NCBI RefSeq assembly: GCF_013167455.1
Contig: NZ_CP038328.1
Direction: 5' to 3' (one strand)
DNA length: 64,000 nt
DNA from: Escherichia coli O157:H7
Lineage (GTDB): Bacteria; Pseudomonadota; Gammaproteobacteria; Enterobacterales; Enterobacteriaceae
The position numbers were made by a program, and so were the translations under genes. Each line of letters opens with the position of its first letter. Position 1 is the stretch's first letter. Below the pieces are notes generated by a model. That model was given only the letters and a program-made list of their open reading frames with translations. It made no database searches and had not been told where the DNA came from. Positions 705-34,719 of the stretch are shown in pieces.

Positions 705-1046
705 CTACGATTTACGCATGCTCAACAACGCACCGATAAAAATACCTACCGCAGCAGCAGTTCCCACACTACACCAGGGTCTTTCACGAACAAAAGAATC
801 CGCGCAGCCTACGGCATCGCGCGCGGCTTGCTGGACGCGAGTACGACCATGCATTCGCGCCCTGGTTTCTTTCAGCAATGCCTGAGCTTTACTGCGTGCG
901 GCTTCAGCTTCCCCTTTGGCGTCGCTGCCCCAGGACTTCAATACAGATTCGAGGCTGTCAGCTAATTGATTGACATCATTCTGGATATCCTGCACGCCAT
1001 CATCAACGTCGTTGCGGTTCGGTCGGTTAAACATATGATCCCCCAT
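705..1046 (-). CDS. ygaM: DUF883/ElaB-family ribosome-associated membrane protein YgaM
   Basis: 113-aa ORF, coiled-coil N-terminus plus C-terminal TM helix; matches remembered K-12 YgaM and its position next to ygaC. Confidence 0.8.
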   Translation of the reverse strand: MGDHMFNRPNRNDVDDGVQDIQNDVNQLADSLESVLKSWGSDAKGEAEAARSKAQALLKETRARMHGRTRVQQAARDAVGCADSFVRERPWCSVGTAAAVGIFIGALLSMRKS

Positions 1047-1185
1047 TAGAATTCGATGTAATTTTCAGTGTAGACCATAATTTTCTTAACTGAGGTTCAT
1101 CGCGGCTTTATGGACTTTTCTGAAAGCGTTGTGAATGCGCAATCAGGTAAGGTAGGCCCGCGGTTGATAATAACGAGGATCAAAT

Positions 1186-1530
1186 ATGTATTTACGACCA
1201 GACGAGGTGGCGCGCGTACTTGAAAAAGTCGGTTTTACTGTCGATGTGGTAACCCAGAAAGCGTATGGTTACCGCCGTGGGGAAAATTATGTCTATGTTA
1301 ATCGCGAAGCGCGAATGGGACGTACCGCTCTGGTAATTCATCCAACATTAAAAGAACGCAGTTCGACACTGGCTGAACCCGCTTCCGATATTAAAACTTG
1401 CGATCATTACCAGCAATTTCCGCTCTATTTAGCAGGCGAGCGACACGAGCATTACGGTATCCCGCATGGCTTTAGTTCGCGTGTTGCGCTTGAACGTTAT
1501 TTGAATGGTTTATTTGGCGAAGCCAGTTAA
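1186..1530 (+). CDS. ygaC: Uncharacterised protein YgaC (DUF2002)
   Basis: 114-aa ORF in the K-12 gene order between ygaM and alaE. Confidence 0.75.
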
Positions 1531-28479: not shown

Positions 28480-29778
<1,299 letters not shown>

Positions 29779-29853: not shown

Positions 29854-30249
29854 CTAAAAAATGCCAGTCTTCACGTTGCTTGTTCCAGCATTAAAGATGT
29901 ATGTGCTGACTTTTTCGCCTTTGAAAGAAACTGTCAGAGATTTAGTTTGTGAGTCTGCGCCACCTGCAAGCAGTCCCACAACGGGGATGAAAGAGGTTGC
30001 TTTGGACTGGCTGTTATACATAGTGTATGACCATTGTTCTTCACCATCGATCAAAGAACGGCTGTCAGGTTCACCGAACGATGCTAACACGTCCTGTTTT
30101 GTAGTTTTGCCTTTAACAATTTTGGTTTTCACACTTTCCTGCGTCTCATTTTTCAATGACTGGTTGCCTACTGAAGAACAACCTGCCAAGGTCAGAAAAA
30201 CGAATCTATATGAGAGTTTTTTGTACCTGAGACTAAATCGCCCTCCCAA
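29854..30249 (-). CDS. Putative lipoprotein; 5' end overlaps the IS30 remnant, native start possibly lost
   Basis: Lipobox LTLAGCSS after a hydrophobic stretch; ORF-track start is TTG; the first ~13 codons lie inside IS30-derived sequence. Confidence 0.45.
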   Translation of the reverse strand: MGGRFSLRYKKLSYRFVFLTLAGCSSVGNQSLKNETQESVKTKIVKGKTTKQDVLASFGEPDSRSLIDGEEQWSYTMYNSQSKATSFIPVVGLLAGGADSQTKSLTVSFKGEKVSTYIFNAGTSNVKTGIF

Positions 30250-30947
30250 TGCCCTAGAGAGCGTCTGTTATCGATATTTCGGGAACGTTCGTGAATTGGT
30301 GTTCCGTTCACTATGTTAATCGTACCTCTTTCGCCTTTGCGGGTATGACGCCTGCCATGGCGAAGGCTATGCGACCGTCGCAGATGCTGTATATTCAGGT
30401 GGTGTAGCGCTTCACGGCTACGAAAGTACAGCGTTTTATAAATTGTCTCAGGTGATATTCGCAGCGTTTTTTGACGTGGTTTTGTTCGCCTTAACCATCC
30501 TGATATTTGCTCTGGAGACCATTTCATCTCCAGCTTTTCCAGAACAAGCTTTCGCAATGGTAAATTTTGATCCAGTAAGCACGGTTTTGGCCTTTTCGCC
30601 ATTCTGTTGGCTCGGTTATTAGCATCAACAGCTTTGTAATAGCGTCTGCCCCGATTACGCTGAACTTCACGTGAGATCGTCGAAGGACTGCGATTCAGCG
30701 CAGTAGCTATCGCACGAATGCTCATTTTGGCTGACAAACCAGCTCGTATCTCCTCGCGCTCAGACAGTGTCAGGTGAGCTACAGCCCGCTTACGCTCATG
30801 GGGTTTTATGCCGCCAGTATCCCTTAACATAGTGAAGATCGTTCCGGGTTTTGAACCCAGGATATTCGCTATTTCACTGAAGCCTGTTCCGTTCTTCCAT
30901 AGTTCAAAAACAGAGGCTTTTTCCTCTGCTGTAAATGTTCGTCTCAT
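30192..30947 (-). pseudogene. IS30 transposase, C-terminally truncated (about 246 of 383 aa)
   Basis: MRRTFTAEEKASVFELWKNGTGFSEIANILG...HWEGDLVSGTKNSHI then unrelated DSFF-stop. Confidence 0.8.
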
Positions 30948-31009
30948 TCAAAAAACCTCCGCAACCCCATGTTTTCACATAACTGTTGCGTTGACCAATT
31001 GAATCTACA
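30207..31009 (-). mobile_element. IS30 remnant (left inverted repeat plus 5' two-thirds of transposase)
   Basis: Terminal sequence TGTAGATTCAATTGGTCAACGCAACAGTTATGTGAAA (minus strand, ending at 31009); transposase translation matches remembered IS30 InsI up to ...GTKNSHI, then diverges. Confidence 0.8.
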
Positions 31010-31024
31010 GTGGTCTGTTTTAAT

Positions 31025-31094
31025 ATTTCTATTTCTATTTCTATTTCTATTTCTATTTCTATTTCTATTTCTATTTCTATTTCTATTTCTATTT
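31025..31094 (+). repeat. (ATTTCT)n hexanucleotide microsatellite, about 12 units
   Basis: Perfect tandem repeat beginning 16 nt outside the IS30 terminus. Confidence 0.95.
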
Positions 31095-31288
31095 GTTGTG
31101 ATTTTTTCTTTAGTTCATGTATTTCGATTTGTTTCTGAATTATCGGGGGTAGTGTCTTCCCTTTTCCCTGAGGCTTATCATGCAGTTATTTTCGCCATCT
31201 TGGTATTGTGGAAATACCGACATCCATAGCTTTGGTGAGCTCTGTTCAGGTGGCCAAATTCAGAAAACCATTACGGAGGAAGAAGGCG

Positions 31289-31855
31289 ATGGCTAAACCA
31301 GCGCGAAGACGATGTAACCGTAAAAGAGAAGATTTAACTGTTAAAAGGATATTTGAGTTACTAAGTTTCGATAAATCTACCGGGGTATTTAGATGGAAAG
31401 TTCCCACTCAGGGAAGGATAGCATTAAATAGTGTTGCTGGAGCTTTTGATTCCAACGGTTATTCAATGATCATGATAGATGGGCGTAGATATAAAACTCA
31501 CGTCTTAGTTTTTTACATAACTCATAATCGTTGGCCTGCTGGTCAAATTGACCACGTTAATGGAATTAGGACCGACAATAGGCCAGAAAGTTTAAGAGAA
31601 TGCCTGCCAATAGAAAATTCAAGAAATATAAGGATCCGAAAGAATAGCAAATCAGGTTGCAGAGGGGTTACTTGGCACAAACGACAGAAAAAATGGAATG
31701 TTAGGCTAGGATTCCATGGCAAGAGTAAACACTTCGGATGCTTTGATGATCTGGAGTTAGCGGTACTAGTTGCTGAAGAAGCCCGAGATAAGTATTACGG
31801 TGATTTTTCCGGCAACGAAAGGAGCACTTATGCGAATCTATCGAAGGAAATGTAA
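31289..31855 (+). CDS. HNH endonuclease with AP2 DNA-binding domain (phage homing-endonuclease-like)
   Basis: ATG with GGAGGA Shine-Dalgarno; HNH motif [18 protein letters not shown] and AP2-like [31 protein letters not shown]. Confidence 0.65.
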
Positions 31856-32441
31856 ATGTTGCAATGAATGGTTTATACCAAAATATCAAAATCAATATTG
31901 GTGTAATGAGATTTGTGGAACCAAGATAGCACTCGAACGACGAAGTAAAGAACGCGAAAAAGCGGAAAAGGCAGAAAAGGCAGCAGAGAAGAAACGACGA
32001 CGAGAGGAGCAGAAACAGAAAGATAAACTTAAGATTCAAAAACTCGCCTTAAAGCCCCGCAGTTACTGGATTAAACAAGCCCAACAAGCCGTACACGCCT
32101 TCATCAGAGAAAGAGACCGCGACTTACCATGTATCTCGTGCGGAACGCTCACGTCTGCTCAGTGGGATGCCGGACATTACCGGACAACTGCTGCGGCACC
32201 TCAACTCCGATTTGATGAACGCAATATTCACAAGCAATGCGTGGTGTGCAACCAGCACAAAAGCGGAAATCTCGTTCCGTATCGCGTCGAACTGATTAGC
32301 CGCATCGGGCAGGAAGCAGTAGAGGAAATCGAATCAAACCATAACCGCTATCGCTGGACTGTCGAAGAGTGCAGGGCCATCAAGGCGGAGTATCAACAGA
32401 AACTTAAAAAACTGCGAAACAGCAGAAGTGAGGTTGCATGA
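31830..32441 (+). CDS. ninG: Lambdoid NinG/Rap-family recombination protein
   Basis: [30 protein letters not shown] zinc-ribbon N-terminus and [12 protein letters not shown] tract typical of NinG. Confidence 0.75.
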
Positions 32442-33103
32442 ATATCTACGAAAGAATTGATGGCAGCAAATACCGAAATATTTGGGTAGTTGGCGATCTG
32501 CACGGATGCTACACGAACCTGATGAAAAAACTGGAGACGATAGGATTCGACACCAAAAAAGACCTGCTTATCTCGGTGGGCGATTTGGTTGATCGCGGTA
32601 CAGAGAACGTAGAATGCCTGGAATTAATCACATTCCCCTGGTTCAGAGCTGTACGTGGAAACCATGAGCAAATGATGATTGATGGCTTATCAGAGCGTGG
32701 AAACGTCAATCACTGGCTGCTTAATGGCGGTGGCTGGTTCTTTAATCTCGATTACGACAAAGAAATTCTGGCTAAAGCTCTTGCCCATAAAGCAGATGAA
32801 CTTCCGTTAATCATCGAACTGGTGAGTAAAGGAAAAAAATATGTCATCTGCCACGCCGATTATCCTTGTGATAAATACGAGTTTGGAAAGCCAGTTGATC
32901 ATCAGCAGGTAATCTGGAACCGCGAACGAATCAGCAACTCACAAGACGGGATCGTGAAAGAAATCAAAGGCGCGGACACGTTCATCTTTGGTCATACGCC
33001 AGCAGTGAAACCACTCAAATTTGCCAACCAGATGTATATCGATACTGGCGCAGTGTTCTGCGGAAACCTCACATTGATTCAGGTACAGGGAGAAGGCGCA
33101 TGA
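32438..33103 (+). CDS. Lambdoid Ser/Thr protein phosphatase (NinI / PP-lambda family)
   Basis: Metallophosphatase motifs GDLHG, GDLVDRG, GNHE; ATGA overlap with ninG. Confidence 0.8.
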
Positions 33104-33723
33104 GACTCGAAAGCGTAGCTAAATTTCATTCGCCAAAAAGCCCGATGATGAGCGACTCACCACGGGCCACGGCTTCTGACTCTCTTTCCGGTACTGATGT
33201 GATGGCTGCTATGGGGATGGCGCAATCACAAGCCGGATTCGGAATGGCTGTATTCTGTGGTAAGCACGAACTCAGCCAGAACGACAAACAAAAGGCTATC
33301 AACTATCTGATGCAATTTGCACACAAGGTATCGGGGAAATACCGTGGCGTGGCAAAGCTTGAAGGAAATACTAAGGCAAAGGTACTGCAAGTGCTCGCAA
33401 CATTCGCTTATGCGGATTATTGCCGTAGTGCCGCTACGCCGGGCGCAAGATGCAGAGATTGCCACGGTACAGGCCGTGCGGTTGATATAGCCAAAACAGA
33501 GCAGTGGGGGATAGTTGCTGAGAAAGAGTGCGGAAGATGTAAAGGCGTCGGTTATTCAAGAATGCCAGCAAGCGCCGCATATCGCGCTGTGACGATGCTA
33601 ATCCCAAACCTTACCCAACCCACCTGGTCACGCACTGTTAAGCCGCTGTATGACGCTCTGGTTGTGCAATGCCACAAGGAAGAGTCAATCGCAGACAACA
33701 TTTTGAATGCGATCACACGTTAG
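33100..33723 (+). CDS. Late-gene antitermination protein Q
   Basis: 207-aa ORF at the canonical position after the nin genes; Cys-rich motifs [10 protein letters not shown] and CGRCKGVGY. Confidence 0.7.
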
Positions 33724-33960: not shown

Positions 33961-34719
33961 ATGAGTTGTAAGCCAATGTTATCATCTTGTATTGGGGTGG
34001 TTATGAAGGATGGTGCGCTGCTCAGGAGTTCTTCACTTTTTATTGCCTACATGGGATGCCTTGGATGGGGGAGTGCTTATTTCTATGGATGGGGTACTTC
34101 TTTTTACTACGGCTTCCCATGGTGGATTGTAGGTGCAGGTGTTGATGATGTTGCCAGAAGTTTATTTTTTGCAGTTATCGTCATTGCTATATTTCTTATC
34201 GGTTGGGGTATTGGTGTTGTATTCTTTTTCGCAGTGAAAAGAAAACATTCTATGCAAGAGCTAAATGTATTTCGCCTTTATTTTGCTGTGGAATTATTGT
34301 TTGTGCCGGCAATTATTGAGTTTTCTATATTGAGACAGAAGATTCAGGTACCTCTTTTGCTACTGTCAGCAGCGATTGCGCTGGCGGTCACAATTTCGAT
34401 AAGATCTTATGGGCGATTTTTATCGGTATCATGCTTCTATGATAAGCCATTTATAAAAAAACATTTTTTTGAGATTGTGATGATTGCTTTTGTGGCATAT
34501 TTCTGGCTTTTTTCATTTCTGACAGGATATTACAAACCGCAGTTTAAGAAAGAATATGAAATGATTAATTATAATGATGGTTGGTATTATGTTCTTGCTC
34601 GTTATGATAATTGTCTGGTTTTGTCTACTTCTTTCAATGCAGGTAGTAAAAGGTTTGTGATTTATCAATCAGCACAAGATAAGAATCTTCAGGTTGATAT
34701 TGTAAGGACCAGAATTTAA
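33961..34719 (+). CDS. Polytopic membrane protein of unknown function at the Q-downstream cargo position
   Basis: 252-aa ORF with several hydrophobic helices rich in W/F/Y/G and a hydrophilic C-terminal tail; AT-rich; occupies the interval where stx lies in Stx phages. Confidence 0.5.
   Translation: MSCKPMLSSCIGVVMKDGALLRSSSLFIAYMGCLGWGSAYFYGWGTSFYYGFPWWIVGAGVDDVARSLFFAVIVIAIFLIGWGIGVVFFFAVKRKHSMQELNVFRLYFAVELLFVPAIIEFSILRQKIQVPLLLLSAAIALAVTISIRSYGRFLSVSCFYDKPFIKKHFFEIVMIAFVAYFWLFSFLTGYYKPQFKKEYEMINYNDGWYYVLARYDNCLVLSTSFNAGSKRFVIYQSAQDKNLQVDIVRTRI

Follow-up and report, generated by a model that had tools for sequence, protein, structure and literature searches.

The window, by which we mean the whole stretch of 64,000 nucleotides of Escherichia coli O157:H7 that was analyzed, contains at the edge of a lambdoid prophage remnant what is best explained as a free-standing, I-HmuI-like HNH_3 homing endonuclease gene (HEG) with an AP2 DNA-binding domain, carried on a 596-bp cassette within the first 30-90 bp of the phage gene ninG. 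We give this reading, which is drawn from comparative sequence analysis and structure prediction, a probability of roughly 0.7. The gene is a routine, previously annotated member of the familiar HNH-AP2 class and in itself matters little, as HNH-AP2 homing endonucleases are common in phages. What is added here is the anatomy of a cassette embedded in ninG, evidence for its recent lateral spread, a window-specific exchange of asparagine for serine at residue 101 (N101S) and the lack of a visible promoter. The anatomy provides a clear natural example of a selfish nuclease residing inside a coding gene at low cost, its start having been captured and its N-terminus given back; it also points to a candidate homing site in ninG, which lambda, P22-like and Shiga-toxin phages alike have conserved.

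The Nuclease Reading Frame

The nuclease ORF extends on the plus strand from the ATG at 31289 to a TAA stop ending at 31855 (Table 1). RefSeq/PGAP assigns exactly these coordinates to a CDS named "HNH endonuclease" (WP_001108083.1) in an E. coli O157:H7 chromosome of 100% identity, and the 801 bases around the gene are 100% identical to four complete O157:H7-type chromosomes. A longer ORF from a GTG at 31208 (215 aa) was dropped as a start, because its upstream frame is ninF in prophages with a canonical ninF; comparison with those prophages leaves the ATG at 31289, together with a GGAGG that can be read 8 nt 5' of it, as the only start kept. The protein matches PHROG 99 ("HNH endonuclease") over its full length (E=1.4e-68) and no NCBIfam model, and no second copy of the gene was found within the window.

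The family to which the protein belongs is very large. An exhaustive protein search returned 96,601 cluster representatives at E<=1e-3 and 37,454 at E<=1e-10; this search, and not a word-indexed one that gave only 6 matches, yielded the usable alignment (A2), which comprises 34 single-module family members and is the source of the family profile used below. Phage relatives, found in thousands of records, share 25-45% identity with the nuclease, and the 2,925 phage records that match it at under 60% identity include T5-like phages and gene 3.8 of T7.

Table 1. Coordinates of the nuclease gene, its cassette and the surrounding features in the window.
Feature	Position	Strand	Basis or remark
Truncated IS30 (N-terminal part of transposase and terminal inverted repeat, IR); left boundary of the remnant	30207-31009	-	Domains, PGAP, IR
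(TATTTC)x11.8 microsatellite in phage-derived upstream flank (class A context)	31024-31094	.	TRF
3' end of ninF and ribosome-binding region of ninG (GGAGGAAGAAGGCG), conserved, now serving the nuclease ORF	31272-31288	+	Identity to lambda and to HEG+ prophages
HNH-AP2 endonuclease ORF, complete, 188 aa	31289-31855	+	ORF call, Pfam, PGAP, PHROG, AlphaFold2, Foldseek
ninG-derived start and nine codons (MAKPARRRC), forming the nuclease N-terminus; left copy of the ninG 5' end	31289-31317	+	Lambda match
Cassette, 596 bp, 38% GC, in place of 64 bp of lambda-type ninG (lambda 42461-42524)	31318-31913	+	Pairwise junction mapping
HNH_3 beta-beta-alpha-metal nuclease core, residues 68-113	31490-31627	+	Pfam stretch 68-106, I-HmuI alignment, AlphaFold2 strands and helix
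Asp88-His89	31550-31555	+	Alignment to I-HmuI
Codon 101, AGT (Ser), AAT (Asn) in every other copy examined; derived base G at 31590	31589-31591	+	Sequence comparison
Asn110	31616-31618	+	Alignment to I-HmuI
AP2-type DNA-binding domain, residues 122-173, three strands and one helix	31652-31807	+	Pfam, family profile, AlphaFold2, Foldseek
Shine-Dalgarno AAGGAG (31820-31825) and ATG (31830-31832) for the rebuilt ninG, within the 3' coding end of the nuclease gene	31820-31832	+	Read from sequence
Diverged, AT-rich ninG 5' end from the cassette; right copy of the ninG 5' end	31830-31913	+	NinG alignment, GC
ninG	31830-32441		Downstream of nuclease
Lambda-like remainder of ninG (Rap junction endonuclease)	31914-32441	+	95% identity to lambda 42525-43043
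NinI-type phosphatase	32438-33103		Downstream of nuclease
Antiterminator Q	33100-33723		Downstream of nuclease

Anatomy of the Cassette within ninG

Both junctions of the cassette can be placed by alignment to lambda. On the left, window positions 31276-31317 are identical to lambda 42419-42460 at 40 of 42 positions; the identity begins at 31276 in the comparison with lambda (42419) and at 31272 in that with HEG+ prophages carrying canonical ninF upstream. On the right, identity to lambda of about 95% is found over the remainder of ninG, and in a megablast search against phages the lambda-type ones align to the window as separate segments with the nuclease gene left out. The cassette is set off by its base composition as well, with a GC fraction of 0.379 where the remaining ninG has 0.491. 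Only from residues 12-17 onward does the protein show homology to the nuclease family, which agrees with the first nine codons being those of ninG.

These alignments show a two-way exchange of signals. The nuclease ORF uses the ribosome-binding site, the ATG and the first nine codons of ninG, and the cassette hands ninG a new Shine-Dalgarno, an ATG and a diverged substitute for approximately its first 28 codons. Given this capture of ninG signals, the nuclease would in an intact phage be expressed with the early nin genes and would not need signals of its own. The duplicated 5' end of ninG can be recognized on both sides, as CGAAGACGATGTAA at 31304-31317 in the left copy and as CGAAGGAAATGTAA at 31842-31855 in the right copy, whose TAA is the stop of the nuclease: the codons TGT AAA of the rebuilt ninG supply it in the other frame. 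The ORF that starts at 31830 is a full-length NinG (Pfam NinG E=5.2e-81; PGAP CDS). The nuclease thus resides in neither an intron nor an intein, since its reading frame ends at a stop of its own and the rebuilt ninG forms a separate one; a group I or II intron setting was rejected because no intron or other RNA family of Rfam matched at E<=1 in 30900-32500.

The substitute N-terminus differs markedly from the one it replaces. In HEG-less NinG proteins this segment is conserved as MAKPARR[KR]CK..C.EWFHPAF.NQWWCSPE.GT in lambda, H-19B, Stx2-86 and the P22-like Salmonella phage SE22; cassette-linked NinG shares about 55% identity with HEG-less NinG over these first 34 columns and 89-95% elsewhere. 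At the nucleotide level the substitute 5' end has 31% GC, compared with 49-51% in HEG-less alleles, and at 32 of its 84 nt it departs from the H-19B type, with a change from GC to AT in 20 of these cases. In the E. coli records sampled and in the phage records it was found only alongside the nuclease gene. Import from an AT-rich donor would account for its low GC content no less well than selection for immunity.

Domain Structure and the Substitution at Residue 101

The presence of both HNH and AP2 motifs, on which the original prediction was founded, is upheld, the two halves of the protein being identified by different routes. A Pfam search with the single sequence, as had been proposed, recovers HNH_3 above its cutoff (35.4 bits versus 24.8, E=8.5e-9) and leaves AP2 below it (22.1 bits versus 33.3, E=1.8e-4); a single-sequence search of the PDB likewise gives a marginal AP2 match only (E=0.19). 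The family profile matches I-HmuI (1U3E, E=1.6e-8) with its N-terminal half and the solved plant AP2 domains of WRI1 (7WQ5, E=7.5e-8) and TEM1 (7ET4, E=1.8e-3) with its C-terminal half. An AlphaFold2 model of the nuclease (pLDDT 90.2, pTM 0.79) predicts a beta-beta-alpha core in the N-terminal half, formed by strands 86-89 and 102-105 and helix 107-111, and strands 127-130, 135-142 and 145-152 followed by helix 155-173 in the C-terminal half. Foldseek searches of the PDB with this model ranked I-HmuI first (probability 0.99) and WRI1 second, and the C-terminal domain could be superposed on AtERF1 with an rmsd of 1.4 Å over 51 columns and on TEM1 with 1.1 Å over 48 columns. As the family profile and the predicted fold agree, we consider both the HNH_3 and the AP2 domain to be real.

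In the profile alignment, residues D74, H75, N87 and N96 of I-HmuI correspond to D88, H89, position 101 and N110 of the window protein. His89, the general base at the end of strand 1, and the preceding Asp88 are intact in the window copy, as are the metal ligands Asp88 and Asn110, the latter located in the first turn of the helix; D88, H89, N110 and N113 are all present and occupy four columns that are invariant in A2. The central Asn of the H-N-H motif, on the other hand, is Ser in the window allele. The intactness of the catalytic residues, by which the prediction was to be judged, therefore holds for the general base and the metal ligands and fails for this one position, while the assignment to the family is unaffected.

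Asn (AAT) is found at position 101 at the same locus of EDL933, in the Stx1 phage SH2026Stx1, in five other E. coli prophages, in the Salmonella copy and in the protein cluster P0002. Among 264 homologous modules the column is the most conserved of the nuclease half, with Asn in 258 and Ser in none. The 81 nt of the window around codon 101 are matched exactly by 4 of the 537 genomes that carry the nuclease core; presumably these are the four strains that are 100% identical over 801 bases, of which ECP19-598 alone is among the matches listed. N101S can be used as a lineage marker for this small group of O157:H7 strains. The central Asn keeps both strands of the finger in position (PMC5714182; PMC5304195), and mutants of the equivalent Asn retain 6.9-83% of the activity in ColE7, 50-80% in GVE2 and none in EheA (PMC5304195). 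Since the equivalent mutants thus range from no activity to 83%, the N101S enzyme is not obviously dead; the Ser101 allele is a derived variant, probably a weakened one.

The Window Copy in Its Prophage Remnant

Phage homology starts at 31010, directly after the end of the IS30 inverted repeat at 31009, which places the nuclease gene at the left edge of a lambdoid remnant, just where it had been predicted to lie. The ORF at 30192-30947 contains HTH_38 and related domains and is annotated by PGAP as "IS30 family transposase, missing C-terminus." Farther to the right the remnant is interrupted by IS66- and IS3-family elements, and it ends near nleG-type (DUF1076) genes and espW; we take it to be, probably, a Sakai Sp17-type element. 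The microsatellite array of the upstream flank also occurs in O111 RM9322 and 14EC047, and it has 17.8 copies in phage SH2026Stx1.

In intact relatives the nuclease gene belongs to the nin region, within the early operon; in the window, IS30 has taken the place of the upstream part of this operon. A search for sigma-70-like promoters in 30900-32000 found 0 sites, with 3.0 expected from shuffled sequences. The absence of a visible promoter and the replacement of all upstream sequence by IS30 make silence likely, and the combination of N101S with the missing promoter renders activity of the window copy unlikely. The suggestion that the gene could remain active in a decayed prophage has therefore become doubtful. 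Judged from its sequence and surroundings, the window copy is most likely silent, and would be weakened if it were made at all.

The further claim that the gene is a dead relic in this O157:H7 strain, unexpressed and inactive, with an ORF that remains open because the lineage is young, seems to us somewhat probable. The promoter count and the removal of the early operon by IS30 speak for it, as do the only change in the lineage, which is non-synonymous and affects the most conserved column, and the state of the rest of the remnant, in which IS elements and truncated genes abound; transcription reading through from IS30 or from upstream genes is nonetheless possible. Such a relic would be compatible with the main explanation, as it concerns the window copy and not the nature of the gene.

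Distribution and Evidence for Lateral Spread

The nuclease core is present in 537 of 5426 complete E. coli genomes, and 530 E. coli genomes cover at least 80% of a query that spans the right junction. Because clonal O157:H7 genomes dominate this census, the 537 genomes represent far fewer independent events. Sixty of 991 E. coli records were sampled, which showed either the nuclease gene together with the diverged ninG 5' end or an alignment starting at 31914; no class intermediate between these two types was found among the sixty. Of 344 phage records with a match to the NinG N-terminus, four have the cassette type (SH2026Stx1 and AU6Stx1, two accessions each), and the remaining ones reach at most 61% identity in the NinG N-terminal segment.

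The contexts in which the cassette resides are diverse. The window, SH2026Stx1, O111 RM9322 and 14EC047 share a (TATTTC)n microsatellite together with a flank that is not ninF (class A), and MS 196-1, 600055, PEC422 and the Salmonella Infantis chromosome CP150140 have canonical ninB-ninE-ninF upstream; in these canonical contexts the stop of ninF overlaps the start of the nuclease gene, as ninF overlaps ninG in lambda. The presence or absence of ninH and the Q genes also vary among carriers, and the insertion site is constant. Compared with the window across seven contexts, the cassette shows 1-6 differences in 596 bp (99.0-99.8% identity) versus 11-36 differences in 528 bp of adjoining ninG (93.2-97.9% identity), a contrast in uniformity that gives Fisher p values of 2e-7 to 0.03 in six E. 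coli and phage contexts. The element is thus present or absent at one fixed site and is more uniform than its flanks, both of which are properties of homing genes, and this comparative signature is the one that would be expected of a free-standing homing endonuclease gene. The fixed site, the uniform cassette and the lack of an intron family support the original prediction of such a gene; what has to be amended is its position, as it is embedded in the 5' end of ninG.

Lambdoid mosaicism alone can bring a conserved module into divergent flanks via ordinary recombination. The cassette might accordingly be an ordinary mosaic module that landed once in ninG and owes its later shuffling solely to general or Red/Rad52-type recombination through its ninF and ninG flanks, the enzyme not being the driver. 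The nin regions of lambdoid phages are indeed mosaic, the flanks differ among carriers, and the conserved sequences on either side of the cassette could mediate such exchange. We nevertheless regard this explanation as unlikely, given that the cassette is markedly more uniform than the neighboring DNA, that its architecture is the one described for homing endonucleases and that the catalytic His, Asp and Asn are kept in 8 of 8 copies compared, each with at most three amino acid differences from the EDL933 allele.

We find it highly improbable that the protein has been domesticated, be it as an accessory nuclease for recombination or exclusion that acts with NinB and NinG, or as an AP2 regulator with a dispensable nuclease. 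The gene does sit among the recombination genes ninB and ninG, and DNA-binding domains of homing endonucleases, AP2 included, have been co-opted as phage repressors (bioRxiv 10.64898/2026.02.23.707548; PMC10448857). However, most ninG-bearing phages lack the cassette, as the phage records above attest, no PADLOC defence model was matched, and the nuclease motif is conserved in all copies but that of the window, which argues against a role independent of the nuclease.

Three further assignments were rejected: a terminase-associated HNH protein that helps in cos cleavage, since the gene lies in the nin region and not beside terminase genes and belongs to the HNH_3/I-HmuI family; a component of a defence system, since PADLOC matched neither the nuclease nor the 590-aa upstream gene of an intact phage relative; and a CasPR-type AP2 repressor, since CasPR consists of CapR and AP2 without HNH and is found in Bacillota (bioRxiv 10.64898/2026.02.23.707548).

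A Putative Route of Homing

Returning to the homing endonuclease gene as the preferred explanation, we propose that its spread could proceed as follows. In a mixed infection, or when a phage encounters a prophage, the AP2 domain and the N-terminal sheet would bind a cassette-free ninG at its conserved 5' end, and the HNH finger would then nick or cut nearby. The cassette-bearing copy could serve as the template for repair, which would convert the recipient and allow the element to spread. The conservation of HEG-less NinG N-termini from lambda to P22-like phages would make this segment a good homing target. A cassette-bearing allele might be immune owing to its split site and the heavily changed 84 bp that follow; in carriers the ninG 5' end is split and these next 84 bp are about 38% unlike HEG-less alleles, the target being placed here from position only.

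A hint of how the target may be recognized is offered by base composition. AP2 domains tend to favor G/C-rich motifs (PMC10448857; bioRxiv 10.64898/2026.02.23.707548), and the replaced stretch of HEG-less alleles contains GCCGGG or CCCGGC motifs that are lost from the cassette allele; taken together, this loss and the G/C preference are suggestive only.

The position of the cassette lends the matter a wider relevance, as about 1.2 kb separate its boundary from Q, which follows downstream in the remnant. Should the enzyme be active in other strains, it could favor exchange of the region controlling late-gene and Shiga-toxin expression. One could also imagine that an Asn101 nuclease made from a cryptic prophage, such as that of EDL933, cuts the cassette-free ninG of superinfecting or induced lambdoid and Stx phages in trans, leading either to a loss of yield (exclusion) or to repair from the remnant; we hold this to be very improbable. 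If true, such repair would carry the cassette together with linked DNA, for instance the Q antiterminator region with its bearing on late and toxin genes, into live phages.

Comparison with Known Systems

No account of this nuclease cassette in ninG turned up in the accessible literature on HNH or homing endonucleases and ninG, ninF or the nin region; the comparison is with systems that resemble it in part. The closest in its nuclease half is I-HmuI of the Bacillus phage SPO1 (PDB 1U3E), which belongs to His-Me finger group 2 and to the same nuclease family as the window protein. I-HmuI itself is reportedly the product of a gene within a group I intron, and in its published structure a C-terminal helix-turn-helix region reads the DNA. 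The window nuclease, in contrast, is free-standing, carries an AP2 domain and has Ser at the equivalent of N87. The combination of domains is in itself not unusual, as AP2 is a listed DNA-binding partner of His-Me finger group 2 (HNH_3, I-HmuI; PMC5714182).

The AP2 half finds its structural counterparts in the plant AP2/ERF proteins AtERF1 (1GCC), WRI1 (7WQ5) and TEM1 (7ET4), with which it shares the fold of three strands and a helix as well as sequence homology at the profile level. Unlike the window protein, these are transcription factors without a nuclease.

A partial parallel to the capture of a resident start is provided by gene 31 of Salmonella phage epsilon34, in which an eaE-like N-terminus is fused in frame to an HNH homing endonuclease (PMC2629481). 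In this lambdoid phage, too, the N-terminal part of a resident gene has come to belong to an HNH homing endonuclease ORF; gene 31 differs in belonging to the early left operon, in that its nuclease is related to those of Gram-positive phages and in that no rebuilt copy of the resident gene was reported (PMC2629481).

Genes of the HNH-AP2 type have been known for some time. Magnani et al. (2004; PMC520932; cited in PMC10448857) described HNH-AP2 homing endonucleases in phages, cyanobacteria and protists, and the "IPA-HNH" genes of ICP1 (PMC10448857) combine, like the window gene, an N-terminal HNH with a C-terminal AP2 domain. HNH-AP2 genes are scattered in phage genomes and lie at boundaries of genetic exchange (PMC10448857). 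The known members of this class are usually described from positions between genes, whereas the one described here is located inside the 5' end of a coding gene, whose start it reuses and whose N-terminus it re-creates.

Genomic context of the nuclease gene

The truncated IS30 to the left of the lambdoid remnant, which lacks the C-terminus of its transposase, abuts a gene for a BamE-domain lipoprotein, and therefore marks the junction of two different foreign elements, the integrase-bearing island on its left and the lambdoid remnant on its right. The island also includes a 432-aa ORF in which an uninterrupted (GCCAGA)x30.7 array specifies a Pro-Glu alternation some 60 residues long; the ORF's sole match in Pfam is a low-complexity one.

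Features flanking the nuclease cassette and in related loci
Feature	Coordinates	Position	Annotation or character
432-aa ORF	window 28480-29778	integrase-bearing island, left of IS30	hypothetical (RefSeq)
(GCCAGA)x30.7 repeat	window 29499-29682	within 432-aa ORF	
Truncated IS30 with lipoprotein gene	window 29854-31009 (lipoprotein gene 29854-30156)		
(TATTTC)x11.8 microsatellite	window 31024-31094	immediately right of IS30 end	perfect hexanucleotide repeat
38-aa ORF (MQLFSPSWYCGNTD...EEEGDG)	window 31180-31296	ninF position	
20-bp duplication	window 31307-31347	exactly at left cassette junction	imperfect, tandem
ninG/ninI junction	window 32438-32443		
252-aa ORF	window 33961-34719	just downstream of Q	hydrophobic, membrane-like; hypothetical (RefSeq)
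590-aa gene (SH2026Stx1 gp36)	L003 (phage SH2026Stx1) 1876-3648; also L009 (another relative) 1-1664	opposite strand; upstream of microsatellite in intact relatives	
Second HNH fragment and AP2 ORF	L010 (E. coli MS 196-1 prophage) 743-1186		HNH fragment decayed

Between IS30 and the nuclease gene, the phage flank carries a (TATTTC) microsatellite. The array comprises 17.8 copies in SH2026Stx1 versus 11.8 in the window, and O111 RM9322 and 14EC047 have still other copy numbers; the tract is thus variable in length. In intact relatives a 590-aa gene lies farther upstream, which has no match in PADLOC and whose region was lost to IS30 in the window.

The 38-aa ORF in place of ninF shares its C-terminal end with the last residues of ninF and is probably a remnant from the replacement of the ninF region. 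It has no match in PHROG, and its SH2026Stx1 counterpart, gp37, is listed as hypothetical in the annotation of that phage. The left cassette junction coincides with a tandem duplication (AGACGATGTAACCGTAAAAG / AGAAGATTTAACTGTTAAAAG; TRF score 54). This duplication may be a footprint left when microhomology joined the nuclease gene, at its native 5' end, to ninG, or it may be due to chance.

The MS 196-1 prophage, which also has the ninG cassette, holds a second HNH fragment followed by a separate ORF annotated as an 'AP2 domain-containing protein'. The pair adjoins a toprim/primase gene and apparently represents a broken HNH-AP2 gene at a site other than ninG.

Comparison with lambda downstream of the cassette

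The 252-aa ORF downstream of Q has no match in Pfam, and its version in O111 RM9322 is frameshifted. At the ninG/ninI junction ninH is absent, and the stop codon of ninG and the beginning of the gene for the NinI-type phosphatase overlap. O111 RM9322 and 14EC047 share this layout; other cassette carriers have kept ninH. In lambda, ninH lies between ninG and ninI, and homology to the window skips from position 1244 to 1431 of the lambda locus (L002).
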